Below, in pieces: positions 11,795-45,371 of a DNA stretch of 64,000 nucleotides (the stretch's first letter is position 1; each line of letters starts with the position of its first letter). The DNA comes from Acidobacteriaceae bacterium. GTDB lineage: Bacteria > Acidobacteriota > Terriglobia > Terriglobales > Acidobacteriaceae. Made by a program: the position numbers and the translations under genes. Under the pieces are notes generated by a model. It searched no databases, was not told where the DNA came from, and saw only the letters and a program-made list of their open reading frames with translations. The DNA lies in the NCBI GenBank assembly GCA_003131315.1, contig PKUV01000160.1:59804-123803 (forward strand), written 5' to 3'.

Positions 11795-11827
11795 GGCTAC
11801 CTCCAAAGGTGCCCAGCCTCAATCAAG

Positions 11828-12547: not shown

Positions 12548-12658
12548 GGAATCTTTGTCGTGGCGATGACCACAAAATGTGGAATACTACCAATCTGCCG
12601 TCCGATGGCGGAACATTGCTTGGCGGCTGCGAGCCCGAATCCGATAAGGAGAATCAGA

Positions 12659-22542: not shown

Positions 22543-22572
22543 TTGTCAACTGTTTGACAACTACGACAGTTG
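22543..22572. promoter_or_regulatory. nested inverted repeats (candidate operator)
   Basis: TTGTCAA-CTGT-TTGACAA lies at 22543-22560. It overlaps CAACTGT (22547-22553) ... ACAGTTG (22566-22572). TGTTTG occurs three times nearby. Confidence 0.45.
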
Positions 22573-22766
22573 TTTGTATGCTGTGTCGGCGTCGAATCAG
22601 TGTAGGCAACGCTGCAGATTTCTACGCCAAACGACTGGATCGGCAAGAACCGCTCGCAACGCTTAAGTTGCGCTGCGGAGCGCCGAACGGGTATTTTGCG
22701 ATCGCGAAGCAAGATGGCGTTCGGCTGTGTGTCGCGCAGATCGCTCCTGTGGTTAGTTCGTTCTTT

Positions 22767-23588
22767 ATGAAGGGCTCTCCCCGCAAAACGGCAATCTCGT
22801 GGGTCGAATCGGATCGTATTCTGCTGCGAGGGTATCCGATCGATGCGCTCGTGGGAAATGTATCGTGGGCAGCAGCAGTTTACCTTGCGCTGGTCGGGGA
22901 AATACCGAATCCACGGATAGCGCGGCTTCTGGAGGGCATTCTGGTCTCAGTCATCGATCATGGCCCAACCCCCGCATCCACTCTCGCAGCGTGTACAGTG
23001 GCTAGCACCGGGTCGCCGTTAGCTAGTTCTGTGGCAGCCGGGCTCCTTGCGATAGCGAAGTCTCACGGCGGGGCAATTGAAGATTGCATGAGCGTGCTGG
23101 AGCGTTGTGTGGGCCTGAAACAAGATCCGGCTACGGCCGCTGCCAAAGTGGCACGCGAGTACCGGGAACAGGCGATTAGGGTTCCCGGGTTTGGTCATCG
23201 GCAACATTCGGCGGATCCTCGTAGTATCCGATTGCTCGACCTGGCTCGCGAGCTCGATTTGTTCGGAAACTATGTCGCCCATGCACAAGCCATGGAGGAT
23301 GTTCTGTCTAGAATTGCAGGCAAGCGATTACCGCTCAATGCAGACGGAGCGATAGCTGCTCTGCTCTGCGAGATTGCATTCCCGAAAACAGCCGCGAACG
23401 GAATCTTTATGATCGCCAGGATTCCGGGCTTGGTAGCGCACTGCCTTGAAGAGCAGGCGCGTAACCTTCCGCTGCGCGCCATCGATCCGGCTGCCTATGA
23501 ATATGATGGCCCCCCCGAGCGCAGTCTCGGTGGACAGAAGCACACACCAGAAAATGCGGTCGGAGAGTCCAAGGGAATGCAACCGTGA
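22767..23588 (+). CDS. citrate-synthase-family protein, short citryl-CoA-lyase-like form
   Basis: 273 aa. ILLRGYPIDALVG...VIDHGPTPAS...VPGFGHRQHSADPR...IARIPGLVAHCLEEQ. The start at MKGSPRK was chosen over the longer 22554 frame. Confidence 0.75.
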   Translation: MKGSPRKTAISWVESDRILLRGYPIDALVGNVSWAAAVYLALVGEIPNPRIARLLEGILVSVIDHGPTPASTLAACTVASTGSPLASSVAAGLLAIAKSHGGAIEDCMSVLERCVGLKQDPATAAAKVAREYREQAIRVPGFGHRQHSADPRSIRLLDLARELDLFGNYVAHAQAMEDVLSRIAGKRLPLNADGAIAALLCEIAFPKTAANGIFMIARIPGLVAHCLEEQARNLPLRAIDPAAYEYDGPPERSLGGQKHTPENAVGESKGMQP

Positions 23589-25036
23589 GTCGCTTCGACC
23601 TGGTCATAAAAAACGGCACTCTGGTGATCCCATACACCGGCCTGGTACAAGCAGATGTTGGCGTTAAAGATGGGCGCATTGCAGCGATAGGAGAAAGCAT
23701 AGCCGCAAATGAGGCGGAGACGCTCGTTCAAGCTCGCGGCAAGATGGTGTTTCCGGGCGCGGTGGATTCCCACTATCACGTCGGCATCTACCGCCCATTT
23801 TCAAAGGACGCGGAATCCGAATCTCGATCTTCTTTGGTTGGTGGCGTCACCACGCTTCTCAGCTATTTCAGAACCGGCCACCACTACCTCGATAAGTCCG
23901 GTCCATATCGCGAAATTTTTCCACAAGTGCTCGAACTCTCTGAAGGGCACTTCTATACGGACTATGGATTTCATCTGGCGATCATGACTGCGGAGCAGTT
24001 GCTCGAGGTCGATGATCTCATCGATACATTTGGCGTCGGCTCTTTTAAGTTTTACATGTTCTACAAAGGCTTGAATTTATCCGCGGACTCGACGCGCGGA
24101 AACGATTACACCATGGCCGACAATTACGATCTTGGCCACCTCTACTTGCTCATGGAGAGAGTTTCCGCCGCTTCCCGTAAGCACGCGGACAAGGGGAGGA
24201 TTGCGCTTAGTCTTCATTGCGAAAATCCTGAATTAATCCGCGTTTTTATTGAAAGAGTCAAACGGGAGGGTAGGCGAGGGCTGGAAGCCTACAGCGAAGC
24301 GCGCCCTCCGTTGAGTGAGCGCTTATCCATTGTGGAGGCGGTATTGCTAGCCGAGGCTACGAGATGCCCGATCAATCTCCTGCACCTGAGCAGCAGGCAG
24401 GCACTCGAAGCTGGCATCAGGTCGCGCCGGGAACATCCCGAGCTCGACATTGTCTTGGAAACTACACTTCATCACCTAACTCTGACCTGCGAAACCGCAG
24501 GCGGCATGATCGGTAAAGTTAATCCCCCGATTCGGGGGCAAGAGGATATCAATTATTTATGGGAAGGTATTGCCAACGGGGAAATCGATACTGTGGTCAG
24601 CGATCACGCGTGTTGCATGGAAGAAGATAAACGAGAAGACGATCTGTGGGGCTCGCTGCCCGGCTTTGGTGGATCGTCTCTCCTGTATCCGACGCTGATC
24701 TCCGAGGGATTCCATAAGCGCAATGTCCCTCTTACGCGCATCAGCGAAATCGCTTCGGCCAACCCGGCCCGCCATTTTGGATTATTTCCTCGCAAAGGAA
24801 CGTTGGCGGTGGGCGCCGACGCCGACTTTGCAGTCATTGATCTGCACCAGACTCAGGCGGTGAATGCTGATTTGCTGCAGTCAGCACAGGATTTCACGCC
24901 GTTTGCCGGAATAAAGATCAAAGGCTGGCCAACGGAAACCATATTGCGGGGTGAAATAATGATGAAGGATGCGAAAGTTACGGCGAAACCCCGCGGACGG
25001 TACCTTCGCCGCCCTATCGAACTGCACAAGGGCTAG
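23585..25036 (+). CDS. cyclic amidohydrolase (D-hydantoinase/dihydropyrimidinase/allantoinase-like)
   Basis: GAVDSHYHVG (HxH), SFKFYMFYKG (carbamylated-Lys context), LHCEN, LLHLSS and VSDHACC. The GTGA start/stop overlaps the previous gene. Confidence 0.85.
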   Translation: MSRFDLVIKNGTLVIPYTGLVQADVGVKDGRIAAIGESIAANEAETLVQARGKMVFPGAVDSHYHVGIYRPFSKDAESESRSSLVGGVTTLLSYFRTGHHYLDKSGPYREIFPQVLELSEGHFYTDYGFHLAIMTAEQLLEVDDLIDTFGVGSFKFYMFYKGLNLSADSTRGNDYTMADNYDLGHLYLLMERVSAASRKHADKGRIALSLHCENPELIRVFIERVKREGRRGLEAYSEARPPLSERLSIVEAVLLAEATRCPINLLHLSSRQALEAGIRSRREHPELDIVLETTLHHLTLTCETAGGMIGKVNPPIRGQEDINYLWEGIANGEIDTVVSDHACCMEEDKREDDLWGSLPGFGGSSLLYPTLISEGFHKRNVPLTRISEIASANPARHFGLFPRKGTLAVGADADFAVIDLHQTQAVNADLLQSAQDFTPFAGIKIKGWPTETILRGEIMMKDAKVTAKPRGRYLRRPIELHKG

Positions 25037-25087: not shown

Positions 25088-25163
25088 TTGACAAAGGGCG
25101 CCTCTCCCATGAAAATCAGCACCTAGTGACAAGTGTTTGAAACAGAAAACAGTGGAAAACAGT
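25088..25163 (+). promoter_or_regulatory. candidate promoter and operator of duplicated module A
   Basis: TTGACA (25088-25093), then 17 nt, then GAAAAT (25111-25116). Next come the palindrome TGTTTgAAACA (25134-25144) and GAAAACAGT twice (25145, 25155). Confidence 0.35.
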
Positions 25164-25229
25164 CTAGGCACCAGGAAATCCAGAGGTATTTGGACAACAG
25201 AGATGTCTTCACGAGTACAGGGGGATCCA

Positions 25230-26660
25230 ATGGCAGGCGAAAAGATAACCGCGATTGAAGCCACGTATGTGATGGTGCCAGACAACGGTTCGCAGACGAT
25301 ACTGCGCGACAAGACGGTAGTGGTGGAAGGGGACCGGATCAAGGAAGTGAGCGATCACTACGACGGTCCCGTGGATCGCCGGATCAAAGCGGAGGGCCGC
25401 CTGCTCTCTCCCGGTTTCATTAATTGTCATACACATGTGGGGTGCGCCACGTACTCACGTGGGATGGCCGAGGATCGCGACCTGGTCGAAGGCAGTGCCT
25501 TCTACCATTATTTCGTCCCGTTGCTGACAATTGGCTATAAGCATTTCACGCCTGACGAAATGTCGGCTCTCCTGGAATGGGACATTCTGGAGATGATCAA
25601 GAAGGGTTCTACCACAATTCTGGAAGAGAATTTTGGTGGTTACGACAGCGTCATCGAAATTGTGAACCGACTGGGGAACCGAGCCTACATTAGCTACAGC
25701 TATCCCAACCAAGTCAGCAAGATCGGCTACCTCAAAGACGGTAAGCTGTGCTATGACAAGCCGGATCCGATTGAGGTGGGCAAGGGTCTGAGACGGGGCC
25801 TGGAAATGTATGACAAATACAATGGGTCTGCTTCGGATCGAATCCGCGTGCGACTGAGTCCCACGGGTCCGGACACGTGTCCCCCAGAGGTCTTGAGGGA
25901 CACGCGAAAAGCCGCTGACCGACTCGGTTGTGGCATCAGTATCCACGCCGCACACCATTCCACTGAGGTGAATTTTTGCAGGAACGTCTTCAATGCCAGT
26001 CCGATCGAGCATTTGGCGAATACGGGCATTTTAGGTCCGGATACGATCATTACTCACGTTACCTACACTGACGAAAAAGACCGAAACCTGCTCGCAGCGT
26101 CGAATTCCACTGTAGTCCACTGTTCCTACCGTAAGGCGCGCGAGGCAGTCATCAGCCCCTATCATGAGTACGTTGAGAAAGGGATCAACGTCGCGCTCGG
26201 GACAGACTCTTTTTCGAGTGATATCACCGAGACCATCAAAATGGCCGGGGTACTGGGCAAGATCCGCATGGAGCGTGTTGGAGTCCCCACGGCCGTGGAA
26301 GTCATGGGCTCGGCTACATTGTCGGGGGCAAAAGGGTTGGGCCGCGATGATATCGGTCAAATCAAGGCTGGCGCGAAAGCCGATATGGTGCTGATCGACC
26401 TCACTAAGACCCACAACTTTCCTGTGATAGAGCCAATCAAGAACTTTGTCTACTATTCCTTCGGCACCGACGTGGAGACCGTCATGATCAACGGCAAAAT
26501 CGTCATCGAAAACGGCATCGCACTGACCACCGACGAGTCGGCACTTCGCAAGCGAGTGCAGGCAGCCGCGGACCGCATTTGGGCGATTGCTGCCCGCGAA
26601 GGGGCGCTGCCGGGTGTTTCGTTTGTCCCGAGTAAGAAAACAGAGCCGGTGACCGTATAG
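25230..26660 (+). CDS. Amidohydro_1 deaminase/chlorohydrolase-like amidohydrolase (module A)
   Basis: GFINCHTHVG (HxH), ISIHAAHH and ALGTDS. It resembles the cytosine/guanine/MTA-deaminase and TrzA/AtzA group, and is roughly 60% identical by eye to 32221-33660. Confidence 0.85.
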   Translation: MAGEKITAIEATYVMVPDNGSQTILRDKTVVVEGDRIKEVSDHYDGPVDRRIKAEGRLLSPGFINCHTHVGCATYSRGMAEDRDLVEGSAFYHYFVPLLTIGYKHFTPDEMSALLEWDILEMIKKGSTTILEENFGGYDSVIEIVNRLGNRAYISYSYPNQVSKIGYLKDGKLCYDKPDPIEVGKGLRRGLEMYDKYNGSASDRIRVRLSPTGPDTCPPEVLRDTRKAADRLGCGISIHAAHHSTEVNFCRNVFNASPIEHLANTGILGPDTIITHVTYTDEKDRNLLAASNSTVVHCSYRKAREAVISPYHEYVEKGINVALGTDSFSSDITETIKMAGVLGKIRMERVGVPTAVEVMGSATLSGAKGLGRDDIGQIKAGAKADMVLIDLTKTHNFPVIEPIKNFVYYSFGTDVETVMINGKIVIENGIALTTDESALRKRVQAAADRIWAIAAREGALPGVSFVPSKKTEPVTV

Positions 26661-26690: not shown

Positions 26691-27863
26691 ATGCCGTATG
26701 AGCGGCTTGTGATCAGGCCGGAGAAATGGAAGGCTTCCAACAACGAGGCAACCTCGCCAGCCGTCAGAGCGGGTGACCTTTTATTTGTCGCAGCCCAACA
26801 TTCGATCGAAGGAAATGTACGCGAGCAGGCCCGCGTTGCGCTGGAACGCATACGCGAGATAGTAACCGCAGCGGGTGGCACGATGGACGACGTTGTGGAT
26901 GTCGTAGCTTTCTTTCTTGACATCCGAGATGCGGAAGACGTGCTTGAGGTCAGCCGCGAGTTTTTCTCCAAAGACTATCCGGCCTGGACTTTTATGGGAA
27001 CTCAGGGTCTTCCCCAGCGCGGGTCAGCCGTACATATTCATGCGGTAGCTCATCTCGGGAAGGCCAAGAAACAGTGCTTTACGCCAGACAGTCTTCGATG
27101 GTGGCATAAGTACCCCATGTCCGGTGCCTGCCGCAAGGGCGAGTACCTTTTTATATCGGGGCAAATGGCGGCCGACTTGGATGGCAACATTACGAACCCT
27201 GGCGATCATGCAGCGCAATCCCGCTACATCTTCCATCGGCTCGAAGAGCTGGCCGAACTCGCGGGTGGAAACTTTCGAAGCGATGTTCTCGATCTCCTTT
27301 CTTTCAGTATCGACCCCCGCAGCTTCAATCCCATGTGCATCGACGTCGGATGCAAGGAATTCCTCACCATGCCGTTGTCGCAGGCTCCGTCATGGTCGGT
27401 GATTGGCAGCACCGGATTGTTTAAGCACCTCGCCTTCCATACTGTGAGGGCCATTTGCGAGATTGGAAATGGCAAGGCCGTCGCTTTTACGCCCAGCAGT
27501 ATTTTTTGGAAATATTTGCCTGTCTCCGGGGCCACCAAGAAAGAGCACGGCCATCTGTTGTGCATCGCCGGCGAAGTGGGAATGGACATGGATGGCCAGA
27601 TCGTCTCTCCTGGAAATCCAGCAGCACAAGGTCGCTACGCGTTTAACCGAATCAAAGAGGTAGTGGAGATGGCAGGCGGCACAATGTCCAATATCGTGGA
27701 CATTATCTCCTTTCACAAGGATGTCCGTGCCATACCCACAATTCAGGAAGTCTCGAAGGAATTCTTCAAGGGGCAGCCGCCCGCTTGGACTGCTGTTGGC
27801 TATCCAGGGGGATATTTCGAGGGGCACCTACACGAGATCTGTGCGAGAGCCTGGCTGCCATAA
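26691..27863 (+). CDS. triple RidA/YjgF-domain fusion protein (module A)
   Basis: 390 aa, made of 3 x ~130-aa repeats. Each has RidA-like blocks (AGDLLFVAAQ / KGEYLFISGQ / GHLLCIAGE; ...AGGTMDDVVDVVAF / AGGNFRSDVLDLLSF / AGGTMSNIVDIISF). PAWT/PSWS/PAWT replace the canonical PAR. Confidence 0.8.
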   Translation: MPYERLVIRPEKWKASNNEATSPAVRAGDLLFVAAQHSIEGNVREQARVALERIREIVTAAGGTMDDVVDVVAFFLDIRDAEDVLEVSREFFSKDYPAWTFMGTQGLPQRGSAVHIHAVAHLGKAKKQCFTPDSLRWWHKYPMSGACRKGEYLFISGQMAADLDGNITNPGDHAAQSRYIFHRLEELAELAGGNFRSDVLDLLSFSIDPRSFNPMCIDVGCKEFLTMPLSQAPSWSVIGSTGLFKHLAFHTVRAICEIGNGKAVAFTPSSIFWKYLPVSGATKKEHGHLLCIAGEVGMDMDGQIVSPGNPAAQGRYAFNRIKEVVEMAGGTMSNIVDIISFHKDVRAIPTIQEVSKEFFKGQPPAWTAVGYPGGYFEGHLHEICARAWLP

Positions 27864-27912: not shown

Positions 27913-28797
27913 ATGTCTGATACCAACTACAAAGCGGTAGATATTTCTATTAATGCGTTTCTGCCTGAGAGTTCCTACAAACATCTGTCACTCGGCTTGT
28001 GGAAGGCGTCCGGGCCATCGTACGAAGAGAAAATCCGCAAAGGCTGGACCGCCGAGTACATGGTTGAGATGATGGACCGAGGAAACGTGGAGTTGTCTTG
28101 CCTGATTTCATTGTGCTCGGCGAACGGCGTAGGCGGGGAGGAATTGATCGTCCCTATTGAAGAAATCATTCCAGTCATCCAGAAATATCCCAAGCGGTTC
28201 GTCGGGCTGGTGGGACTTTCGCCACTGCAGAAATGGGGAAGTCCTTACTATCCACCCACCTACATTGAACGTGCGGTGAAGGAACACGGCTTCAAAGGGG
28301 TACACATGTATCCCCACTGGTTCGGAATCAGGGTTAACGATCGGCGCATGTATCCCATTTATGAGAAGTGTGCGGAGCTTGATGTCCCTATTTCATTCCA
28401 GACCGGACAAGGGACGATGCGTTCGAATTCGCGAGTCGTGGCCCGTCCAATTTGGATCGACGAAATTGTGCGGGATTTTCCGACGCTGAAAGTGATTGCG
28501 CTGCACAGCGGATATCCGTGGGAAGACGAGTTAGTTGCGCTCGCGATCACGAATGAGCACGTCTACATTTGTCCTGACGTTCCGCCACCACGACTGTGGC
28601 ATGCGTCCATATTGTCCTACTTGAAAGAAGAAGGGCGTTTCGAGGGCATGAGTGGAAGCGACAAGGTCTTGTGGGCTACTGACTTCCCGTTACAAGAGCC
28701 CGACAAATCCTTGAAAGAGGTGGATGCGCTCGGATTGACTCCGGAAATTCGTCGGAAACTGGTGCGAGACAATGCAATAAAGCTGTTCAAGCTGTAA
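27913..28797 (+). CDS. Amidohydro_2 (ACMSD/LigI-like TIM-barrel) protein (module A)
   Basis: HMYPHWFG, ALHSGYPWEDE and LWATDFP. The N-terminal site reads VDISIN instead of D-x-H-x-H. Confidence 0.8.
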   Translation: MSDTNYKAVDISINAFLPESSYKHLSLGLWKASGPSYEEKIRKGWTAEYMVEMMDRGNVELSCLISLCSANGVGGEELIVPIEEIIPVIQKYPKRFVGLVGLSPLQKWGSPYYPPTYIERAVKEHGFKGVHMYPHWFGIRVNDRRMYPIYEKCAELDVPISFQTGQGTMRSNSRVVARPIWIDEIVRDFPTLKVIALHSGYPWEDELVALAITNEHVYICPDVPPPRLWHASILSYLKEEGRFEGMSGSDKVLWATDFPLQEPDKSLKEVDALGLTPEIRRKLVRDNAIKLFKL

Positions 28798-28845
28798 GAG
28801 TTGACGAGCCCGCGGCAAGGTGATGGGAGAACGTCGGGAGAGGCA

Positions 28846-29727
28846 ATGATTCAGGCGATAGATGTTTGTGTTAATCCGTTTTTCCCGGAATTCAGCGGCA
28901 AGTATGCCCGCTTGGGGTATTGGAATTTCCTCGGTGGCAACATGCTGCGTAGAGCCAAAAACGGCTGGACAGTCGAGGAACTTCTCCGTTCGATGAACGA
29001 GGCGAAGGTGGAAATGGCGGGATTGGTTGCCTTTTGCGCTGCAAGCCCAAGCAATGGAGCCGACTGTTTTATCCCGGCAGAGAAGCTAAAACCGATTCTT
29101 GATTCCCATCCGCAACGTTTTTTCGGCCTAGTTGGGGTTAACCCTCTCGCCCCAATTCAAGACGACTATTACGCTCCGCGGTATCTTGAGCGCGCAGTGA
29201 AGGAGTTTGGCTTTAAGGCCGCCCATCTTGCCTTACACTGGTTTGGCATGCAGCCAAATGACAAGCGCCTGTATCCGATTTATGAGAAGTGCCTGGAGCT
29301 GGGCGTGCCTGTCGTGATGCCGCTCGGGGCTGCGCCTCCACGCTCCGGGGCGCGCAACGTGGCGGAACCGCATTTGCTTGATCCGGTCATCGGTGATTTT
29401 CTGGAACTAAGTATCGTCGGACAATCCATTGGATATCCGTGGGAGCGGGAATCGGTCTATCTAGCGCGGAATAATGCCAACTTCAGTGTGCTAGCCGATT
29501 CGCCAGCCCCCGAGCACTGGATTGCAGATTTTGTCGGGTTCATCAAACAAGGACGCTTTCCCAAGCATGATGCCGGAAGCGATCAAGTGATGTGGGGGTC
29601 AGGGTTCCCCTTTAAGGATCCCGCTCAATCTCGCAGTCAATTTGATGCGATCGCGTTCACAGACGTCATTGCCTCTCAGCTACTTCGGGAAAATGCACTA
29701 CGGATTTTCAAACTTGGCATTCGCTAA
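28846..29727 (+). CDS. Amidohydro_2 protein, divergent paralog (module A only)
   Basis: IDVCVNPFFPEF, HLALHWFG, IGYPWERE and MWGSGFP. GGGAGAGG lies upstream of the ATG at 28846. Confidence 0.8.
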   Translation: MIQAIDVCVNPFFPEFSGKYARLGYWNFLGGNMLRRAKNGWTVEELLRSMNEAKVEMAGLVAFCAASPSNGADCFIPAEKLKPILDSHPQRFFGLVGVNPLAPIQDDYYAPRYLERAVKEFGFKAAHLALHWFGMQPNDKRLYPIYEKCLELGVPVVMPLGAAPPRSGARNVAEPHLLDPVIGDFLELSIVGQSIGYPWERESVYLARNNANFSVLADSPAPEHWIADFVGFIKQGRFPKHDAGSDQVMWGSGFPFKDPAQSRSQFDAIAFTDVIASQLLRENALRIFKLGIR

Positions 29728-29743: not shown

Positions 29744-30985
29744 ATGGCACCCAGTATGCGTGGCTGGAAACTTCTTCTGTTGTTGTGCCTGACCAATGTC
29801 ATGGCTTACATCGGAGTCTTTGAGTTGCCTCCGATTATTGGCAATCTGGTTCACGAATTCCATATCAGTTATGCGCAAGCGGGCTTGTTTATGAGCGTTT
29901 ACGCATTGGTGCGCATGATTGGCAGTCTGATGGCGGGGACGTTCAGCGACCGGTATGGTGTAAAGTACTTTATCCTCGCGGGGCTCGTGCTGATTGCGCT
30001 GGGCGGATTTCTTTGCGCTCATAGCCACGGATACGCGTCCATGTTGGCTTATCGCACAATCATCGGTATCGGTGCGACTTTGATTTTCATCCCCGGCCTG
30101 GCGGCGGCAATGTATCTGGTCCCGCCACATCAGGTCAATCTTGCAACCGGAACGTATTTCACGTCCATGAACCTGGGCCTGACTGTCGCCCTCCTGGTCA
30201 CTCCCATCATGGCCTCGTCGTTTACCTGGCGTACTCCACTCAATCTTTTTGCCGGTCTTAGCATACTCGTGGCACTTGTGTTCTTTGTCGTAACTCGCGG
30301 GCAAACTCTGCAGGCATCAGGCGACCTCCAGGTGACAGGACGGAATAGTGAGCGTGCAGCCGGTACGTACTCGATTCGGAATGTGCCTCTTGTCCTGGTT
30401 TGCATCGGCTATTTTCTGATGTTATTTCACACTTACGGGATGATTACGTGGCTGCCGGAATATTTGAAAGTCGCCCGAGGTTACTCCCCTGCTGTGGTGG
30501 GAGCGGTATCAATGCTACTCGGACTCGTCATGATACCTGGGACCTTTATTTCAGGATGGCTGGGAGACCGCATTGGAGCCTGGGGAATTGGCATGATTGG
30601 CGTGGTTCTTTGCGGCGGCTGTCCGGCGGCATTTATTTTATTCCCAAGAATCCCGCTGTGGGGTGTTTTTGCTGGAGTATGTTTCCTGGCATTCGGCATT
30701 TGTTTATTTGTTGTGCCTCTCACTAGCATTCTCAGTTACCTTGTGCCAGCCAAGGACAACGGAAAGGCGGTTGGCCTGGTCCATACCACAGGATATGCGG
30801 GCTCGATTGCATCCACTTATCTTGGCGGTTACCTGCTTACCCTCACCGGGAATTATTCGTGGCCGTTTGCGTTATATGTCGGTTCAATGGTTGTCAGTCT
30901 TTTTCTGCTGTTAGCGATGCACCGATACTATGCCGAGGCCGAAACGGGTCGACGTGCGCCTGCGGTTGAGGCCCAACCCGCGTAG
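29744..30985 (+). CDS. MFS transporter (module A)
   Basis: 413 aa with ~12 hydrophobic segments and a GTFSDRYG loop 2-3 motif. Confidence 0.85.
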   Translation: MAPSMRGWKLLLLLCLTNVMAYIGVFELPPIIGNLVHEFHISYAQAGLFMSVYALVRMIGSLMAGTFSDRYGVKYFILAGLVLIALGGFLCAHSHGYASMLAYRTIIGIGATLIFIPGLAAAMYLVPPHQVNLATGTYFTSMNLGLTVALLVTPIMASSFTWRTPLNLFAGLSILVALVFFVVTRGQTLQASGDLQVTGRNSERAAGTYSIRNVPLVLVCIGYFLMLFHTYGMITWLPEYLKVARGYSPAVVGAVSMLLGLVMIPGTFISGWLGDRIGAWGIGMIGVVLCGGCPAAFILFPRIPLWGVFAGVCFLAFGICLFVVPLTSILSYLVPAKDNGKAVGLVHTTGYAGSIASTYLGGYLLTLTGNYSWPFALYVGSMVVSLFLLLAMHRYYAEAETGRRAPAVEAQPA

Positions 30986-31064: not shown

Positions 31065-32201
31065 ATGCCAACAGCTTCATCGGCTAATCGCTCAGCAGCG
31101 AACAAAGCCATCGAAAATGGGGACCTGATGCGGGGGGCCCGCAACTGTGTTAACGGATATTGCGCGATCCAGCGCGACGAGCGCGTCCTCTTGTGGCTGG
31201 ATCGCAACGACACCGTCGACCCAACCGTCGTGAATGCTCTGGTGACGGCAATTGATGAAACTGGCGCCCCACTTAGTGTATTGCGAACGAAGGCCCCGAT
31301 TTTCCGGTATGGACAAAGGCTGTCTCCCGTAGAGGAAGCAGCAATATCCAATGCAAATGTCCTGATGCATGTCTTCGACCTGGAGAACGCAGCTTCGGTG
31401 GACAACGCTGACATCTATCGGTGCATGTGGGAGCACGAGTTGCGGGTCACGTCGGTGATCGCAACCACTCCCCGCATCATGAACTCTGATTGGGCCCATT
31501 ACCCGCCTGAACTGCATTACTACATGTGGATTAAATCAGCCCGACTGCTTTGCGACACCGAAGCGCATCTGACCGATGATCTCGGTACCGATCTCCACAT
31601 GAAGTTGTTCCCGTGGCCTAAAGGCGATCCCCTCTCGTCGTCTTGGGCGAGCGTAGACAAGAAGGCCAAAGTGCACCGCCCGGCAGGAACATGGGAATTT
31701 TTCCCAGGTGGCACGATCGCGCTTTGTCCCAAGGCCGTGGAAGGTACCTTGGTGTTCGAACTCCTTGAGGGATTTGCGGGCTACTTGAGCGAGCCGATTC
31801 GGTTGACGATCAAGGATCACTGGGTGACGAAAGTTGAAGGCGGAACGGAAGCTAAGTGGCTGAAGGAGCGCATGCGTCGTTATAACAACGGGTCTTACTT
31901 CTGCGAATTCGCCTGGGGAATCAATCCGCGTTCCCCCTTGCAGGAGGGTTTGAAGGTAAAAGCTCCGGATAGTCTTCTGTTTCGTCGGGCAGGGAGCTTT
32001 CATTGCGCCGTGGGGCTCTGGCCCGGAATGGGTGTGCCCAGTCCTTTCCACTGGGATGGCGGCGGGCTAAAGCCGACGCTGACACTGGGTAAGAAGACTG
32101 TCATTGACCGGGGATATTTCACCATGCTGGATGACCCGGACGTGCGGGAGTTGGCTTCAAAGTATGGGAATCCAGAGGAATTCTTGTCGTACGAAAGTTG
32201 A
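31065..32201 (+). CDS. M29 (thermophilic metalloprotease) / NicX-superfamily protein
   Basis: CEFAWGINPRS and SPFHWDGGG resemble the GEFgIGtN and H-x-D metal motifs of M29 aminopeptidases and 2,5-dihydroxypyridine dioxygenase. The assignment is by eye. Confidence 0.55.
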   Translation: MPTASSANRSAANKAIENGDLMRGARNCVNGYCAIQRDERVLLWLDRNDTVDPTVVNALVTAIDETGAPLSVLRTKAPIFRYGQRLSPVEEAAISNANVLMHVFDLENAASVDNADIYRCMWEHELRVTSVIATTPRIMNSDWAHYPPELHYYMWIKSARLLCDTEAHLTDDLGTDLHMKLFPWPKGDPLSSSWASVDKKAKVHRPAGTWEFFPGGTIALCPKAVEGTLVFELLEGFAGYLSEPIRLTIKDHWVTKVEGGTEAKWLKERMRRYNNGSYFCEFAWGINPRSPLQEGLKVKAPDSLLFRRAGSFHCAVGLWPGMGVPSPFHWDGGGLKPTLTLGKKTVIDRGYFTMLDDPDVRELASKYGNPEEFLSYES

Positions 32202-32220: not shown

Positions 32221-33660
32221 TTGGTCTTGAAGGAGAACGAATCGACAGAAGGGCCGATCACAGCGATTCACGCCAGCTATGTGGTGGTGCCTGAGAAAAA
32301 TAGCCACGACGTTCTGCGAGATAAGACGGTGGTCGTCCGCGGCAATCGCATCTGGCAGATTTGTGACAGCTATGCGGGTCCTGCGGACATAAGTATCCAT
32401 GCCGCTGGCAGACTGCTCGCGCCTGGATTTATCAACGCACACGTACACGTGGGAGCCGCCACTTACGTACGGGGTTTGTGCGAGGATCGCGACCTGCTTC
32501 CGGGAAGCGCCTTTTATCACTACGTGGTTCCGCTGATCGCAGTGGGCGCGGCAAATTTCAGTCTTGAAGAGTTCGGCGCTGTGATCGAGTGGGATATGTT
32601 GGAAATGCTTAAGAAAGGTTCGACAACTATTCTGGAAGAGAATTTCGATCACTATGAGATCCTGGTAAAAGTGGCCGAGCGCCTGGGAAATCGGGCTTAT
32701 CTGAGCCCCACATATCCTTCCGGTCATGGGAACATTGGTTACATCAAGGATGGAAAACTCCAGTACGATCGTCCGGCAGAAGGCGCTGTTAGCGCTGGGT
32801 TACAACGAAACATCGACCTGCACGCCCAGTTCAATGGGTGTGCCAACGATCGTATTCGTGTGCGCCTGAGCCCTACGGGGCCAGATACCTGCCCGCCCGA
32901 TGTTCTACGGGAGACCCGGAACGCAGCCGACCGGTTGGGCTGTGGCATCAGCATTCACGCGGCGCATCACCAGAGGGAGTTCGAAATATGCCGGACCAAA
33001 TTCAATGCGACGCCCATCGAGCACCTGGCTAATACCGGGATCCTGGGCCCGGACGCGGTCGTCACGCACTGCACTTTCACCGATGAAAACGATCGGAAAC
33101 TGCTGGCCGAGAGCAAATCCACCGTGGCCCATTGTTCTTACCGCAAAGCCCGAGAGGCGGTAATCGGACCCTTCTGGGAGTATCTGCAAAAAGGGATTAA
33201 TGTCGCGCTGGGAACGGACTCGTACTCCAGTGACATTACAGAGACGATCCGAATGGCCGCCGTGCTGGGCAAGATCAAGGCCGGCCGTGTAGGCGCGCCC
33301 ACGGCCGCGGATGCATTCGATGCGGCAACTCTCGGCGGGGCAAGGGGATTGGGGCGAGATGATCTGGGCCAAATCAAGCCCGGTGCCAAAGCTGACCTTG
33401 TGCTGATCGACTTGACCAAGCCGCACAACTGTCCCGTCATCGATCCCATCAAGAATTTTGTCTACTACTCGTCGGGCACCGATGTGGAAACCGTGATGGT
33501 GGATGGGAAGATCGTTGTCGATCGGGGACGCGCGGTGAATACCGATGAAGATGACTTGCGGGAGCGAGTTCGTTCCGCGACCCAGCGCATTTGGCGTCTG
33601 GCGGATGAAAAGGGCGTTGTCGATGGGTTACGGCCCGCGCTCACCTCGGGAAACTCATGA
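32221..33660 (+). CDS. Amidohydro_1 deaminase-like amidohydrolase (module B)
   Basis: GFINAHVHVG, ISIHAAHH and ALGTDS. It is a paralog of 25230-26660. The TTG start is uncertain. Confidence 0.85.
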   Translation: MVLKENESTEGPITAIHASYVVVPEKNSHDVLRDKTVVVRGNRIWQICDSYAGPADISIHAAGRLLAPGFINAHVHVGAATYVRGLCEDRDLLPGSAFYHYVVPLIAVGAANFSLEEFGAVIEWDMLEMLKKGSTTILEENFDHYEILVKVAERLGNRAYLSPTYPSGHGNIGYIKDGKLQYDRPAEGAVSAGLQRNIDLHAQFNGCANDRIRVRLSPTGPDTCPPDVLRETRNAADRLGCGISIHAAHHQREFEICRTKFNATPIEHLANTGILGPDAVVTHCTFTDENDRKLLAESKSTVAHCSYRKAREAVIGPFWEYLQKGINVALGTDSYSSDITETIRMAAVLGKIKAGRVGAPTAADAFDAATLGGARGLGRDDLGQIKPGAKADLVLIDLTKPHNCPVIDPIKNFVYYSSGTDVETVMVDGKIVVDRGRAVNTDEDDLRERVRSATQRIWRLADEKGVVDGLRPALTSGNS

Positions 33661-34835
33661 CCACCTTTCAGCGAGTGGGACTCCAGATTGAAGGCTCGTC
33701 AGGGAAGCCATTTTCGTCGGCTGTCCGTGCCGGAGATCTGCTATTCATCAGCGGTCACACCGGAGTGCATGGAGATAACCCTAGCGGCGACGTTCGTGTC
33801 CAGGCGAGATCTTCCTTCCGCGAGATTGAGAAGGCCGTCACCATCGCGGGCGGCACAATGTCTGACGTGGTGGACATACTTGCCGCGTTTGTCGATATCC
33901 GCGACGCCGATGACGTTCTCGAAGTAGCCCGGGAGTTTTTCCCTAGAGACTATCCTGCTTGGACTGCGATGGGCACCCAAGGCTTGCAGCATCGGGGATC
34001 TAAGCTTCTGATTCATGCCGTGGCTCACCTTGGCCCTGAGAGAAAGCAGTGTTTCACTCCCGACAGTTTGCGCTGGTGGCGCAAGTACCCGATTTCAGGG
34101 GCGTGCCGCAAGGGACCATATGTGTTTATCTCGGGGCAGATGCCTATCGATATTGACGGAAATGTGGTGAACGCCGGAGATCATGGTGCCCAGGCCCGAT
34201 ATCTGTTCAGTCGGATGAAAGAACTCGCGGAGTTTGCTGGCGGCAAACTGGAAGATGACCTGCTCGATATCCTCTCCTTTAGTATTGATCCTCGATCCTT
34301 TGCGCCGATGTGCGCAGTGAAGAACAGTGAGTTCCTTACGATGCCATTCGCGCAGGCACCGTGCTCATCCATTATTGGCGCAACGAGTCTCTATCGACAC
34401 CTGGTGTTTCACACGGTACGCGCACTGTGTGAGGTCGGTAACGGTAAGGCTGTGGCCTACACACCCAAGAGCGTTTTCTGGCGCTACTTGCCAGTGTCGG
34501 GGGGGACGAAGAAAGAAAAAGGGCATCTTCTTTGCGTGGCGGGTGAAGTCGGCATGGATATGGATGGGCAGATCGTAACTCCCGGCGATGCGGTAGCGCA
34601 GGCGCGCTATGCGTTCAATCGCATTCGTGATGTGGTTGAAATGGCGGGAGGTAGCATGGATAGTGTCGTAGACCTCATTTCGTTCCACAAGGATGCACGC
34701 GAGATCGAACCCGTCATGGAAGTCGCTCGTGAGTATTTCCGCGGTGACCCTCCGGCTTGGACTGCAATTGGATATCCTGGCGGCTATTTTGAGGGACATC
34801 TACATGAGATCCTAGCGCGGGCGTGGATTTCCTGA
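33657..34835 (+). CDS. triple RidA/YjgF-domain fusion protein (module B)
   Basis: 392 aa, collinear with 26691-27863. PAWT/PCSS/PAWT occupy the canonical Arg position. It has an ATGA overlap with the upstream gene. Confidence 0.8.
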   Translation: MTTFQRVGLQIEGSSGKPFSSAVRAGDLLFISGHTGVHGDNPSGDVRVQARSSFREIEKAVTIAGGTMSDVVDILAAFVDIRDADDVLEVAREFFPRDYPAWTAMGTQGLQHRGSKLLIHAVAHLGPERKQCFTPDSLRWWRKYPISGACRKGPYVFISGQMPIDIDGNVVNAGDHGAQARYLFSRMKELAEFAGGKLEDDLLDILSFSIDPRSFAPMCAVKNSEFLTMPFAQAPCSSIIGATSLYRHLVFHTVRALCEVGNGKAVAYTPKSVFWRYLPVSGGTKKEKGHLLCVAGEVGMDMDGQIVTPGDAVAQARYAFNRIRDVVEMAGGSMDSVVDLISFHKDAREIEPVMEVAREYFRGDPPAWTAIGYPGGYFEGHLHEILARAWIS

Positions 34836-34854: not shown

Positions 34855-35817
34855 ATGGATACGCCGGAAAAAGAGCAACCGAGCTACCAGGCAATCGACG
34901 TTTCGGTCAACATACACTTACCGGAGCATTCGCACCGGTTGTTGCCCCTTGGTCTTTATAAAGCGGCAGGGCCGACTTGGGTCGAGAAAATTCGGGCGGG
35001 TTGGCCCCCAGAATACATGCTGGAGATGATGGATCGGTCTAAGGTTCAGCTTTCGCTAGTAATCTCCCTTTGGTGCGCGAACGGGGTAGGTGGGGAAGAG
35101 CTTTATGTCGCTGCTGAGGAAATGTTGCCTATGTTTGCAGCGCACCCGACTAAGTTCCTTGGCTTGGTTGGGATCTCACCGATCAGAGCCTGGACCGACA
35201 AATACTATGCCCCCAGATATATCGATCGCATGGTTCGGCAGTATGGATTCAAGGGGGCCCATATGTATCCCCACTGGTTCGGCATACGCATCGACGATTC
35301 CCGCATGTATCCGATCTTCGAAAAGTGCGTGGAGCTGGATGTTCCCATTTCCTTTCAGACAGGTCAGGGCACTATGCGCTCAAATTCACGCATTGCGGCC
35401 AGGCCTATTTGGATTGATAAGATCGTCCGTGATTTTCCCGAGCTGAGAATCGTCGCTTTGCACAGCGGATATCCGTGGGAGGAGGAATTGGTCGCCTTGG
35501 CCATCAACAATGAGAACATTTTCATCTGCCCGGATGTCCCTCCGCCGCGTTTGTGGCACACCGCCATACTCGAGTATTTGAAAGAAGAAGGACGATTTGA
35601 GGGTTTGGGTGGCAGCAACAAAGTTGTCTGGGCAACAGATTGGCCCTTGCAGGATCAGGAAACCTCTCTGAAGGAAATCGATGCTCTTGCTTTGGCGCCC
35701 CAAGTTCGGAAGAAGTTGGTGCGGGACAACGCGATCCGCATCTTCAAACTGGAAACTGAATCGCAAGACTCGAAAAGCTCAATGAGCGAATCCGAAAATG
35801 GGAAGTGCGAGAAATGA
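34855..35817 (+). CDS. Amidohydro_2 protein (module B)
   Basis: IDVSVNIHLPEH, HMYPHWFG, ALHSGYPWEEE and VWATDWP. It is roughly 80% identical by eye to 27913-28797 over the C-terminal half and shares the 22-nt run tgcacagcggatatccgtggga. Confidence 0.85.
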   Translation: MDTPEKEQPSYQAIDVSVNIHLPEHSHRLLPLGLYKAAGPTWVEKIRAGWPPEYMLEMMDRSKVQLSLVISLWCANGVGGEELYVAAEEMLPMFAAHPTKFLGLVGISPIRAWTDKYYAPRYIDRMVRQYGFKGAHMYPHWFGIRIDDSRMYPIFEKCVELDVPISFQTGQGTMRSNSRIAARPIWIDKIVRDFPELRIVALHSGYPWEEELVALAINNENIFICPDVPPPRLWHTAILEYLKEEGRFEGLGGSNKVVWATDWPLQDQETSLKEIDALALAPQVRKKLVRDNAIRIFKLETESQDSKSSMSESENGKCEK

Positions 35818-37037
35818 ACGCACCGTCCAGATCGTGGTTCGCTCTGTTATTGATCTGTTCGGCTGTGTTTTGCGCATTCGTTGCTGTGTTTGCGATCCCT
35901 CCGTTAATGGGTATGCTCACTCGTCAGTTTCAAATCAGCTACGCCAGAGCGGGACTCTTCATGACGGCGTATACCATGATCCCGACCTTTGGAAGTCTGC
36001 TGATTGGCTTTTACAGTGATCGTATTGGCGTGCGGCGCGCTGTTCTCAACGGTTTGACGCTCCTGGGTGCGGCTGGGATTCTCTCGTCTCTGACTCAGAC
36101 CTTCTGGCAAATGCTGGCTTGCCGAATCCTGATTGGAATTGGCGCAACTAGCATTTTTGTGCCGGGGCTAGCCACAGTGCTACACCTGCTTCCTCCGGCG
36201 AGGGTCAATTTGGCTACCGGCGCATTCTTTAGTTCACTGAATCTCGGTTTGTCCGTTGCCATGCTTTCGACCCCGACCATCGCCAAATCCCTGGGATGGC
36301 GGGTTCCGTTGTCTTTATTCGGAGCATTGGCAATGATTTTGGCGGCAATCATATTATGTTTCACAAACGCGGACTTTTTCCGGCGATCCTGGAATGCAAC
36401 CAGTGAAAGCACGAAGGCATCCACCCGGGAGAGTTCAGGATGGCCGCTCGTACTGGTGAGTGCAGGCAATTTCCTTCTGTTCTTTCAGTCCTTTGCCATG
36501 ATCACGTGGCTTCCGGAATATCTTTCGCAACAGCGCCAATTCCCACCGGGCCAAGTAGGAGCTATCTCAATGTTGCTTGGGCTCGTAGTCATTCCTGGAT
36601 CGGTGCTAGCCGGCTGGCTGGCAGATCGTGTCGGAGCATGGCTAGTCGCAGTCGCGGGTGCCGTCTTGTGTGCGATCTGTCCAGCCGTGCTGGTCCTGGC
36701 TACAGAACTCAGGTCGTCCCGAGTTTCAATCGCGATCTGTCTACTTTCGCTCGGGACCAGTTTACTAGCCGTCCCGCTAACCAGCGTGCTAGCCAAGCTA
36801 GTTGCTCAAGAACACGGCGGAAAAGCCGTTGGACTCATTCTTACCACCGGCTACGGGGGAGCAATTGTTTCCACCTATTTGGGTGGATACCTGTTAACCG
36901 CCAGCGGCAGCTCTCGGTGGACCTTTTTCATGTGCTCTCTTTCCATGTTATTGACTGTCGTAGTCCTGGCTTTTCTACGCGAGACCTATCGCCTTCTGGA
37001 AACGCGGCCGGATCTATCGGCAGAGGCATTAAGATAA
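35814..37037 (+). CDS. MFS transporter (module B)
   Basis: It has an ATGA overlap with the previous gene and is a paralog of 29744-30985 (GFYSDRIG loop). Confidence 0.85.
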   Translation: MNAPSRSWFALLLICSAVFCAFVAVFAIPPLMGMLTRQFQISYARAGLFMTAYTMIPTFGSLLIGFYSDRIGVRRAVLNGLTLLGAAGILSSLTQTFWQMLACRILIGIGATSIFVPGLATVLHLLPPARVNLATGAFFSSLNLGLSVAMLSTPTIAKSLGWRVPLSLFGALAMILAAIILCFTNADFFRRSWNATSESTKASTRESSGWPLVLVSAGNFLLFFQSFAMITWLPEYLSQQRQFPPGQVGAISMLLGLVVIPGSVLAGWLADRVGAWLVAVAGAVLCAICPAVLVLATELRSSRVSIAICLLSLGTSLLAVPLTSVLAKLVAQEHGGKAVGLILTTGYGGAIVSTYLGGYLLTASGSSRWTFFMCSLSMLLTVVVLAFLRETYRLLETRPDLSAEALR

Positions 37038-39245: not shown

Positions 39246-39289
39246 CCGGAGACAGTTGTTGTACGCACAGCATTTAGGTCCGAAGAGTT

Positions 39290-43446: not shown

Positions 43447-43610
43447 TCTCACACCATCCCATTCTGCAATCGGTTGCTTTAAAGTGCCCAACGCGGCTAA
43501 TCATATACGAATAGCCGCCTGTTTCGCTACGCAGTCAAAAGTTGTTTCAGAATCGGAGGCTCGGACGTCGGGACCGAGCTTGAGAATCAGTTGAGGTGGA
43601 AAGAGCAACA

Positions 43611-45292: not shown

Positions 45293-45352
45293 TTGACATT
45301 TGATCTTGACAAGTGATAACAAGTTGAGCACAATTGTTTGGTTTGGCAAACA
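45293..45352 (+). promoter_or_regulatory. candidate promoter and operator of the second receptor operon
   Basis: TCTTGACA occurs twice (45291-45298 and 45304-45311). TTGACA (45306-45311) is followed by 17 nt, then CACAAT (45329-45334), then the palindrome TGTTTG-N6-CAAACA (45335-45352). Confidence 0.45.
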
Positions 45353-45371
45353 CTCAAGTGTAGGAGGGGAT

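Follow-up and report, generated by a model that had tools for sequence, protein, structure and literature searches.

Introduction

Proteins comprising three tandem Rid domains were named '3x-RidA' by Niehaus et al. (2015; PMC4433059; BMC Genomics 16:382), who gave EF_0115 of Enterococcus faecalis V583 as an example, described such proteins as 'presumably covalently linked trimer units' and tallied their occurrence across 981 genomes. The same study reported Trp instead of Arg105 in the Rid4 and Rid7 (YjgH-like) subfamilies, and so both the triple architecture and the Arg-to-Trp change were described already in 2015. The function of Rid4-7 was said to 'remain completely unknown', imine hydrolase activity was not detectable with S. 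enterica Rid7, and replacement of Arg105 by Ala almost abolished the activity of RidA (PMC4433059). Cyanuric acid hydrolase AtzD, whose step in s-triazine catabolism directly follows those of TRZ/ATZ-family deaminases, was in turn proposed to be a concatenation of three YjgF-like units (PMC3758960). Here, these systems are compared with two paralogous genes that encode triple-Rid proteins (3x-Rid) lacking Arg105. The genes are found in a 64,000-nucleotide stretch of DNA from an Acidobacteriaceae bacterium (assembly GCA_003131315.1, contig PKUV01000160.1, positions 59,804 to 123,803), referred to below as the window.

Two Genes in the Window Encode Triple-Rid Proteins Lacking Arg105

The two genes considered are the following:
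26691..27863, plus strand: 3x-Rid paralog A, 390 residues, ATG start (open reading frame; three PF01042 stretches; AlphaFold2 [AF2] model)
33657..34835, plus strand: 3x-Rid paralog B, 392 residues, ATG start (open reading frame; three PF01042 stretches; alignment)

A Pfam search with PF01042 (Ribonuc_L-PSP, the Rid/YjgF domain of the YjgF/YER057c/UK114 superfamily) revealed three separate stretches in each protein, with E-values of 5e-43 and 4e-45 and scores of 146.3 and 153.3 bits for the two paralogs, as compared to a gathering score of 27.3 bits. These matches are far beyond chance and bear out the claim, made in an earlier sequence-only reading of this DNA, that three RidA domains are joined in a single chain of about 390 residues. 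The paralogs share 67% identity over their full length, and the three repeats share 26-37% identity with one another. BLASTP self-comparison did not detect the repeats, since these are so diverged that only profile methods or MAFFT alignment reveal them. Paralog A was split into domains after residues 126 and 262 and paralog B after residues 129 and 264, and the six domains were aligned by MAFFT, together with E. coli RidA and the products of the two single-domain RidA genes of the window.

At the column corresponding to Arg105, paralog A presents W99, W235 and W366 (motifs PAWT, PSWS and PAWT) and paralog B presents Trp, Ser and Trp (motifs PAWT, PCSS and PAWT, with LHEI being kept in domain 3). 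The codons of these motifs were checked in the DNA of both genes and agree with the protein motifs. The catalytic Arg is thus absent from all three domains of either protein, and the motifs are exactly those originally read, as is the retention of P-A-R by the ordinary RidA genes at 1920-2396, which lies on the minus strand, and at 12104-12547. The accompanying claim that loss of the Arg is specific to the fusions did not hold, given that Arg-to-Trp replacement is a reported hallmark of single-domain Rid4 and Rid7 proteins, with YjgH carrying the motif P-N-W-T. Likewise, the C-terminal 'H/I-E-I' block assigned to each repeat could be upheld for domain 3, where a true equivalent of Glu120 is found (E382), and not for domains 1 and 2, which present His/Ser/Gln and Thr/Ala/Ser, respectively. 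The main elements of paralog A are as follows:
26691..27068, plus strand: domain 1 (residues 1-126), with P97-A98-W99-T100 in place of P-A-R, D77-x-R79, and His115 as the equivalent of Glu120
27069..27476, plus strand: domain 2 (residues 127-262), the most diverged, with W235 as the equivalent of Arg105 and with R253, D208-x-R210, P142 and S144 conserved
27477..27863, plus strand: domain 3 (residues 263-390), the most conserved, with G294, K343-D344-x-R346, P364-A365-W366-T367 and H381-E382 invariant or nearly so
27834..27836, plus strand: E382 codon (GAG), encoding the only Glu120 equivalent retained and a candidate acid/base residue, invariant in 107 of 107 sequences

That the fusion could be an artefact of gene calling or assembly was ruled out by the existence of more than 100 full-length homologs of 380-410 residues, as these occur on separate contigs as well as in the genomes of isolates such as Amycolatopsis jejuensis and Marinibaculum pumilum.

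The Three Domains Are Predicted to Form a Built-In Trimer

Structure prediction for paralog A, with an alignment of 107 full-length homologs as input, yielded an AF2 model with a mean predicted local distance difference test score (pLDDT) of 95.5 and a predicted template modeling score (pTM) of 0.94. In this model, a beta/alpha pattern recurs three times, with the linkers being only ~5 residues long. When the model was compared to the Protein Data Bank (PDB) using Foldseek, the best matches were the chorismatases Hyg5 (5a3k and 5ag3) and FkbO (4bps), colinear over the whole chain (358-365 aligned columns, 12-15% identity), with template modeling (TM) scores of 0.55-0.58 when normalized to the query (TMq) and of 0.62-0.66 when normalized to the target (TMt). 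The next tier comprised many single-domain RidA, RutC, UK114 and YjgH chains, aligned over ~130 columns with TMt values of 0.8-0.94.

Chorismatases are reportedly monomers, the three domains of which mimic the YjgF trimer. Because of the colinear whole-chain match to these pseudo-trimeric proteins, the three Rid domains of 3x-Rid are predicted to pack in a trimer-like manner, as an intramolecular pseudo-threefold 'trimer'. The covalent pseudo-trimer foreseen in the sequence-only reading is therefore in line with the predicted structure, both in terms of the pTM value and in the manner by which the whole chain aligns with chorismatases and each domain aligns with RidA, RutC or UK114. The secondary structure of the model and the Foldseek matches also correspond to a chorismate mutase-like beta-alpha-beta-alpha-beta2 fold, with its assembly as a threefold barrel being predicted from these matches. 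As such, the architecture of 3x-Rid can be assigned with high confidence.

Conservation of the Three Pockets Is Asymmetric

The TdcF pocket comprises Tyr17, Gly31, Asn56, Asn88, Arg105, Pro114 and Glu120, with Arg105, Cys107 and Asn88 being contributed by one subunit and Glu120 reaching across from its neighbor (PMC1884159). These residues were mapped onto the alignment of 107 full-length homologs. In domain 3, G294, K343-D344-x-R346, P364-A365-W366-T367 and H381-E382 are conserved, and none of the mapped positions listed is variable. In domain 1, D77-x-R79 and P97-A98-W99 are conserved and a basic residue occupies the position of Glu122 (Arg in 51, His in 39 and Lys in 9 of the 107), while the Glu120 equivalent is variable (Ser in 52, Gln in 14, Glu in 11), being His115 in paralog A. 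Domain 2 conserves P142, S144, G157, D208-x-R210 and, at the Glu122 position, R253; its Glu120 equivalent is Thr, Ala or Ser, and its Arg105 equivalent, residue 235, varies (Trp in 59, Ser in 15, Tyr in 7, Thr in 7, Leu in 6). The Trp in the P-A-W-T motifs of domains 1 and 3 is invariant across the 107 homologs. Mean column entropy is 1.21 in domain 3, 1.43 in domain 1 and 1.56 in domain 2, and a family-specific D-x-R motif is found in every domain (R79, R210 and R346). Such strongly asymmetric conservation agrees with the earlier expectation of three non-equivalent interfaces, and the three inter-domain pockets are no longer equivalent.

Residues 220 (codon at 27348-27350) and 235 (codon at 27393-27395) were found to be almost perfectly anticorrelated, with mutual information (MI) of 0.95 out of a possible 0.99. 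Sequences without Trp at residue 235 carry either Trp (26 sequences) or Lys (15 sequences, of the paralog B type) at residue 220. It is at precisely this pair that the two paralogs differ, with paralog A having W235 and G220, and paralog B having Ser and Lys. The anticorrelation suggests that one wall of a pocket may be supplied from either position, with the pocket Trp seeming to swap place.

The pairing of half-sites was considered in terms of fold topology. The sheet order is beta1-beta2-beta3-beta6-beta4-beta5, with Arg105 on edge strand beta5, and G31 and E120 on beta3 and beta6. Since a 5-residue linker leaving beta6 would reach only beta1 of a neighbor abutting beta5, the Arg105 side of domain n would pair with the Glu120 side of domain n+1. 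Pocket i would place W99 of domain 1 opposite R253, S144 and G157 of domain 2; in pocket ii, residue 235 or 220 of domain 2 would line E382, H381 and G294, with residue 235 serving as specificity position; and pocket iii would place W366 of domain 3 opposite the variable side of domain 1. MI with position 235 pointed weakly to domain 1, while after average product correction (113 sequences, effective number 57) a handful of subfamily 'hub' columns dominated the MI, with a set test showing no clear handedness. The proposed pairing agrees loosely with what is seen in chorismatases, where Glu-334 of Hyg5, an essential catalytic residue near the C-terminus (PMC7170507), lies in the last domain. 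Gly-164 of Nat-hyg5, named among the specificity residues (PMC7170507), should by its position along the chain belong to the middle domain.

Domains 1 and 3 of the Triple-Rid Proteins Resemble Rid7 Rather than RidA

When the PDB was searched with the sequence of the whole protein, the best match was E. coli YjgH (1pf5, a Rid7 protein), aligned to domain 1 with an E-value of 3.6e-12. This chain also led the matches obtained with the family profile (86 bits, E 1.8e-23) and with domain 3, the domain searched by itself (E 6.5e-9). The motifs P-x-W-T-A-V-G and S-F-H-x-D are common to YjgH and the 3x-Rid domains. In terms of sequence, domains 1 and 3 are most like YjgH/Rid7, that is, of the Trp-for-Arg type. 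Of the Rid7 hallmarks, Trp at position 105 is invariant in domains 1 and 3 and present in domain 2 of paralog A, with the accompanying Glu being found in domain 3 only.

As for RidA, not only Arg105 but also other pocket residues have been replaced, with Tyr17 giving way to Thr, Met or Val, Asn56 to Arg in all three domains, and Asn88 to Leu, Cys or Gln; Gly31 is retained in domains 2 and 3, and Glu120 in domain 3 only. Judged by these residues, the 3x-Rid domains would fall outside the RidA subfamily. Curated NCBIfam models all scored below their cut-offs, namely, TIGR00004 (102.9 as opposed to 106.25 bits), PRK11401 (55 as opposed to 222) and RutC (103.4 as opposed to 169.1).

Distribution and Origin of the Trp-Type Proteins

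A word-indexed search (clusters at 90% identity, E <= 1e-5) returned 191 clusters, almost all of 380-410 residues and bearing no names other than 'Rid family hydrolase' or 'enamine deaminase RidA'. An exhaustive search of representatives at 50% identity returned 2439 proteins at E <= 1e-3, of which 39 reached E <= 1e-30, and most of the best 150 of these proteins were 380-420 residues long, with 2-4 matched stretches. When 269 retrieved proteins were parsed with a domain hidden Markov model, three Rid domains were assigned to 217 and six to a single protein. The latter (P0156, 803 residues) carries its six Rid domains in one chain ('6x-Rid'), the last being of the Trp type and the others presenting Ser, Thr or Leu at the Arg105 position. 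The three-domain proteins include the following patterns at the Arg105 positions of domains 1, 2 and 3:
WWW: 71 proteins
WSW: 17 proteins
WTW: 9 proteins
WLW: 7 proteins
WYW: 6 proteins
RRR: 20 proteins, with the full canonical pocket in all domains
Mostly Ser: 13 proteins

By this sequence pattern, the WWW, WSW, WTW, WLW and WYW proteins make up the 'W-x-W' family, to which the window gene belongs. This clade comprises more than 100 proteins from Acidobacteriota, Chloroflexota, Actinomycetota and Alphaproteobacteria. Colinear homologs were found in the genomes of an Acidobacteriaceae metagenome-assembled genome (MAG; 94% identical), Terriglobia, Dehalococcoidia, Amycolatopsis and Nocardioidaceae, as well as in those of Pseudonocardiaceae, Rhodospirillaceae, Rhizobium-like organisms and Marinibaculum. 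A generic parent CDD model could have captured W-x-W proteins in the 2015 census.

Mean identity among W-x-W domains is 34-37%, as opposed to 22-28% between these and any domain of the RRR or Ser-type 3x proteins or E. coli RidA. No preference for pairing of first with first, second with second or third with third domains between W-x-W and Arg-type 3x proteins was seen in the domain identity matrix. Because the W-x-W domains are closer to each other than to Arg-type 3x domains, the clade probably stems from a triplication of a Rid7-like gene that was independent of the one behind Arg-type 3x-RidA.

The Triple-Rid Genes Lie in a Duplicated Amidohydrolase Cassette

Examination of the region surrounding the two 3x-Rid genes revealed two collinear cassettes, termed A and B, in which all genes are similarly oriented and tightly spaced:
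25137..26660, plus strand: Amidohydro_1 of the TRZ/ATZ type (cog0402-like; Pfam), cassette A, 30 nucleotides upstream of 3x-Rid paralog A; listed with a TTG start, the true start being maybe downstream
27913..28797, plus strand: Amidohydro_2 (ACMSD/LigW/LigJ-type superfamily; Pfam and PDB relatives), cassette A
28801..29727, plus strand: second Amidohydro_2 (domain search), cassette A
29744..30985, plus strand: major facilitator superfamily (MFS) transporter resembling anion or aromatic-acid symporters, cassette A
31065..32201, plus strand: NicX-like protein, 378 residues, between the cassettes (PDB match 7cn3, 2,5-dihydroxypyridine dioxygenase NicX, E 3.7e-8)
32221..33660, plus strand: Amidohydro_1 of the TRZ/ATZ type, cassette B, the stop codon of which overlaps the start of 3x-Rid paralog B as ATGA
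34855..35817, plus strand: Amidohydro_2 (domain search), cassette B
35805..37037, plus strand: MFS transporter resembling anion or aromatic-acid symporters, cassette B

A Shine-Dalgarno-like GGAAGGA lies 8 nucleotides before the ATG at 26691. As scans for promoters and terminators over 21-38 kb yielded matches no more often than did shuffled sequence, the operon structure is read from gene spacing only. The PDB relatives of the Amidohydro_1 proteins include 3hpa, 4f0r, 7ww2 and AtzA (4v1x). When compared to NCBIfam, the Amidohydro_1 proteins match, below cut-off in every case, the models for the chlorohydrolase family, N-ethylammeline chlorohydrolase, 5'-deoxyadenosine deaminase and 8-oxoguanine deaminase. 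For the Amidohydro_2 proteins, PDB relatives indicate a resemblance to the LigW, LigJ and ACMSD group.

The double cassette recurs in four related genomes (loci L004-L007), and a single cassette is conserved, at 65% identity, in a further locus (L085), where the order of Amidohydro_1, 3x-Rid and Amidohydro_2 is kept. The L004 ortholog of the NicX-like gene is 84% identical and carries PF26233 (NicX). One of the four loci (L006, contig CAWAJU010000009.1) is from a MAG labeled 'uncultured beta proteobacterium' and yet holds the same cassette at 86-94% protein identity to the window, the nearest relatives of which are otherwise Acidobacteriaceae/Terriglobia MAGs, reflecting either mis-binning or mislabeling, or recent horizontal transfer.

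More distant homologs are found next to methylmalonyl-CoA mutase, acyl-CoA dehydrogenase and a 202-residue partner resembling carboxymuconolactone decarboxylase (CMD); next to Rieske oxygenases, formamidase and an AtzH-like gene; next to a luciferase-like oxygenase; or next to a conserved 538-residue membrane protein (Amycolatopsis and Gordonia). Given these differing neighborhoods, the link to amidohydrolases is a feature of one subclade, comprising Terriglobia-type members that share at least ~65% identity, and not of the whole family. Across the family, the common link is to catabolic islands and not to any single partner. The 538-residue multi-pass membrane protein, encoded after 3x-Rid in A. 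jejuensis (L001, 9296-10912) and in a Gordonia MAG (L088, 8512-10128), is 72% identical between the two; it matches no Pfam family, has a Cys-rich C-terminal tail and is possibly a transporter. The ~202-residue protein encoded directly downstream of 3x-Rid at two other loci (L086, 8240-8848; L087, 8207-8818) is 59% identical between these and is weakly similar to the CMD/AhpD-like family.

Proposed Function of the Triple-Rid Proteins

In RidA, RutC, 2-aminomuconate deaminase and chorismatase, the fold considered here serves for acid-catalyzed protonation or hydration of enamine, imine and enol-ether groups. Because Arg105, the carboxylate clamp, is missing from every pocket, 3x-Rid is not expected to act as a RidA-type 2-aminoacrylate/alpha-imino acid deaminase. 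At the same time, an invariant His-Glu pair is kept in a pocket of this acid-catalyzing fold, and a Glu382-dependent tautomerase or hydrolase is proposed for this reason. Covalent linkage would have freed the pockets to specialize, as in chorismatases with their essential C-terminal Glu, and Glu382 would mediate protonation, tautomerization or hydrolysis of an enamine, imine or enol-type intermediate. The substrate would be without an alpha-carboxylate clamped by Arg105 and would turn a ring or hydrophobic face toward Trp, with an acidic group of the ring-derived intermediate being met by relocated Arg residues (R253 and those of the D-x-R motifs).

The operon partners of 3x-Rid would be a TRZ/ATZ-type hydrolytic deaminase, Amidohydro_2 enzymes of the decarboxylase/hydratase type, an anion-type MFS importer and a NicX-like ring-cleavage dioxygenase. 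This set of partners points to the breakdown of a carboxylated N-heterocycle or aromatic amine, in a pathway that may begin with import of an anionic N-heterocycle or aromatic amine and proceed via hydrolytic deamination and decarboxylation or hydration to cleavage of a dihydroxypyridine-like ring. The two cassettes would handle two related substrates. That 3x-Rid is a catabolic enzyme and not a RidA-type deaminase is reasonably probable; the specific chemistry just outlined is offered tentatively, as it is more apt to be wrong than right.

That 3x-Rid might instead be an ordinary RidA-type enamine/imine deaminase that pre-empts metabolite damage and is merely expressed as a covalent trimer would fit the source annotations of its homologs ('enamine deaminase RidA' and '2-iminobutanoate/2-iminopropanoate deaminase'), a TIGR00004 score falling just short of the cut-off, and an upstream neighbor from a deaminase family, with which N-containing intermediates are plausible. 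Yet all three equivalents of Arg105 have been replaced, as have Tyr17 in three domains and Glu120 in two; the Arg105Ala variant of RidA is nearly inactive and S. enterica Rid7 has no detectable imine hydrolase activity (PMC4433059); and the window already holds two canonical RidA genes with P-A-R, making such a role very improbable. A non-catalytic small-molecule binder or scaffold for the adjacent amidohydrolases, holding or channeling a labile product or stabilizing the enzyme, was also considered. In cassette B, the ATGA overlap with the Amidohydro_1 stop codon suggests coupled, stoichiometric synthesis, the order of Amidohydro_1, 3x-Rid and Amidohydro_2 is strictly conserved down to 65% identity, Glu has been lost from two of the three pockets, and small acids are bound by many Rid proteins for which no catalysis is known (PMC1884159). 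However, H381-E382, G294 and P-A-W-T are invariant among homologs 40-90% identical and drawn from several phyla, resembling a catalytic pocket, and distant family members have no adjacent amidohydrolase, such that an obligate partnership with Amidohydro_1 cannot be the function of the family. A scaffold is hence deemed unlikely.

Considerably less likely still is a ring-opening amidase of the AtzD/barbiturase ('Toblerone') type, with a threefold central-barrel site acting on a symmetric N-heterocycle made by the TRZ/ATZ-type deaminase. AtzD is thought to be a YjgF-like concatenation acting next after TRZ/ATZ-family deaminases (PMC3758960), and 3x-Rid presents a threefold conserved Arg (R79, R210 and R346) downstream of a TRZ/ATZ-type gene. 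Nonetheless, AtzD needs a Ser-Lys pair and an Arg in each repeat, whereas the conservation map holds no threefold Ser/Lys set (K343 being conserved in domain 3 only), and an AtzD-like central active site was rejected for want of Ser-Lys triads. No AtzD or barbiturase structure appeared among the 50 best Foldseek matches, nor was there a PDB sequence match to either at E <= 10, and the strong PF01042 similarity and the interface-pocket motifs kept in 3x-Rid are unlike AtzD. Least credible is a chorismatase-family enzyme or an endoribonuclease/translation inhibitor. Although chorismatases are the best whole-chain structural matches and the Pfam family is named 'Endoribonuclease L-PSP', membership in the chorismatases was rejected on sequence, similarity being negligible (family profile against 5a3k, E 0.064, 15 bits; 12-15% identity); the neighborhood is catabolic, without polyketide, ubiquinone or xanthomonadin genes, and nothing in the gene context points to RNA.

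Returning to a catabolic Glu382-dependent enzyme, several points weigh against that proposal. We know of no substrate or activity for any Rid4-7 or 3x-Rid protein. All of the neighbors score below every curated NCBIfam cut-off, so that these models name no pathway, and homologs below ~50% identity have quite different neighbors. The pairing of pockets draws on fold topology (SCOP) and not on the coordinates of the model, and the covariation tests bearing on it are contradictory and dominated by subfamily signal. Finally, independent triplication was deduced from mean identities and not from a phylogeny. Taken as a whole, a separate triplication, specialized pockets and a catabolic acid-base enzyme in an operon provide the best explanation, one thought to have a slightly better than even chance of being correct.

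Other Features of the Window

Beyond the cassettes, the window encodes further putative catabolic enzymes. Upstream are a dihydropyrimidinase/allantoinase-like enzyme and a citryl-CoA-lyase-like gene, while downstream are caprolactamase/hydantoinase-like A and B subunits (37116-41149), a GntR regulator and an isochorismatase-like hydrolase (44609-45280). Four genes surrounding the cassettes hint that ring-cleavage products are funneled through CoA esters:
19670-21232, minus strand: CitF-like citrate lyase alpha/CoA-transferase
22554-23588, plus strand: citryl-CoA-lyase-like gene
41231-42484, plus strand: family III CoA-transferase
43596-44549, plus strand: HMG-CoA-lyase-like gene

With nine metal-dependent amidohydrolases (Amidohydro_1, Amidohydro_2 and one dihydropyrimidinase-like), the window is unusually rich in such enzymes, which are found at these sites:
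2421-3770, 23585-25036, 25137-26660, 27913-29727, 32221-33660, 34855-35817, 51502-52488 and 52855-54060

Two creatinase/prolidase-like M24 genes are also present at 48778-51493. In terms of its gene content, the window resembles a catabolic island devoted to cyclic amides or N-heterocycles. Its two canonical RidA genes are the following:
1920-2396, minus strand: RidA with P-A-R kept (PF01042 E 1.7e-31; N-terminus MKPRIVAMMLFLLVAGVAVVSAQQ)
12104-12547, plus strand: RidA with LPAR, GTG start and a long N-terminal extension

The product of the first may be exported, as MKPRIVAMMLFLLVAGVAVVSAQQ resembles a Sec signal peptide; an Amidohydro_1 gene (2421-3770, minus strand) directly adjoins this gene. 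The start of the second is uncertain, given the long N-terminal extension from the GTG, and a gene for a YheO-like PAS_6 and HTH_22 regulator (12560-13333, plus strand) follows 13 nucleotides after it. Flanking the catabolic region are two genes for outer-membrane proteins of ~1165 residues with CarboxypepD_reg and OMP_b-brl_4 domains (8312-11806, minus strand; 45300-48800, plus strand). These TonB-dependent-receptor-like proteins are of a type that we take to be typical of Acidobacteriota.

Comparison with Known Systems

What is new here is modest, namely, a distinct and probably independent Trp-type clade, asymmetric conservation of its pockets and a conserved, duplicated amidohydrolase cassette; the results extend current understanding and overturn none of it. 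The function of the Arg-less subfamilies Rid4 to Rid7 has been an acknowledged blank since 2015, and the W-x-W clade offers a tractable entry point. Because threefold symmetry is lost upon fusion, the half-sites that matter can be read from conservation (E382/H381, W99 and W366, as opposed to variable position 235), while two paralogs differing at this variable residue and found in parallel cassettes are an aid to study, and the conserved neighbors (TRZ/ATZ-type deaminase, Amidohydro_2, NicX-like protein and anion MFS transporter) narrow the search for a substrate. It is conceivable, although decidedly a long shot, that the W-x-W proteins form a distinct enzyme class, in which separate concatenation of a Rid7-like trimer allowed the pockets to take on different tasks, with a Glu382/His381 catalytic pocket tuned by residue 235 (or 220) and two Trp/Arg-lined pockets that bind or pass on ligands. 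In such a case, 3x-Rid would be the committed partner of a TRZ/ATZ-type deaminase, processing an unstable intermediate of an N-heterocycle pathway. If true, this would be the first function for any Arg-less (Rid4-7-type) Rid protein.

The assertion in the sequence-only reading that no characterized member of this architecture is known was only partly sustained. PDB sequence matches at E <= 0.001 were all to chains of at most 165 residues, none with three PF01042 domains; literature searches on '3x-RidA' found only the 2015 paper, and those on R107W and Rid7C/YjgH turned up no functional work, within the literature collection searched, on Rid proteins of the Trp type or with three domains. As such, no biochemically characterized or crystallized protein with three PF01042 domains was found in these searches. 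Still, the 3x architecture has had a name since 2015, and the chorismatases FkbO and Hyg5, as well as AtzD, are characterized single-chain concatenations of the YjgF fold.

Like the 3x-RidA proteins of Niehaus et al., the window protein presents three tandem Rid domains in one polypeptide of ~390-400 residues and is biochemically uncharacterized. Those authors, however, placed 3x-RidA as a subset within the Arg-containing RidA subfamily, while the window protein is Arg-less. In the Arg-type 3x proteins retrieved here, among which the sequence of EF_0115 itself does not figure, Y/F17, G31, N56, N88, R105 and E120 are found in all three domains, whereas in the window protein position 105 is either Trp or variable and the Glu120 equivalent is confined to domain 3. 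With Rid7/YjgH (1pf5) and Rid4, it shares Trp in place of Arg105 within P-x-W-T, with S-F-H-x-D also being common. Yet Rid7 proteins are single-domain chains of ~130 residues with a conserved Glu, and their homotrimers have three identical sites, as opposed to the three diverged, fused copies seen here, only one of which has the Glu and to which a D-x-R motif has been added.

As with 3x-Rid, the chorismatases FkbO and Hyg5 (4bps, 5a3k and 5ag3) are single chains with three YjgF-like domains arranged as a pseudo-trimer, and E382, 8 residues from the C-terminus, is like Glu-334 of Hyg5 in its C-terminal position within the last domain, a matter of proximity and not of residue-level alignment. 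Apart from the sequence divergence noted above, chorismatases differ in that their N-terminal domains no longer score as PF01042-like in the search conducted here, and in that their substrate, chorismate, and biosynthetic gene context are unrelated to the catabolic cassette. AtzD, which like barbiturase is of the Toblerone fold, is likewise proposed to derive from three concatenated YjgF-like units, and works on N-heterocycles downstream of TRZ/ATZ-family deaminases. However, the AtzD active site occupies a central barrel and combines a metal site with three Ser-Lys-Arg sets, with no such triads being present in 3x-Rid. Together, these comparisons suggest that concatenation of the YjgF trimer happened repeatedly, giving rise to Arg-type 3x-RidA, the Trp-type clade, chorismatases and AtzD. 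If so, this would be a good example of covalent linkage permitting the divergence of once-identical active sites.

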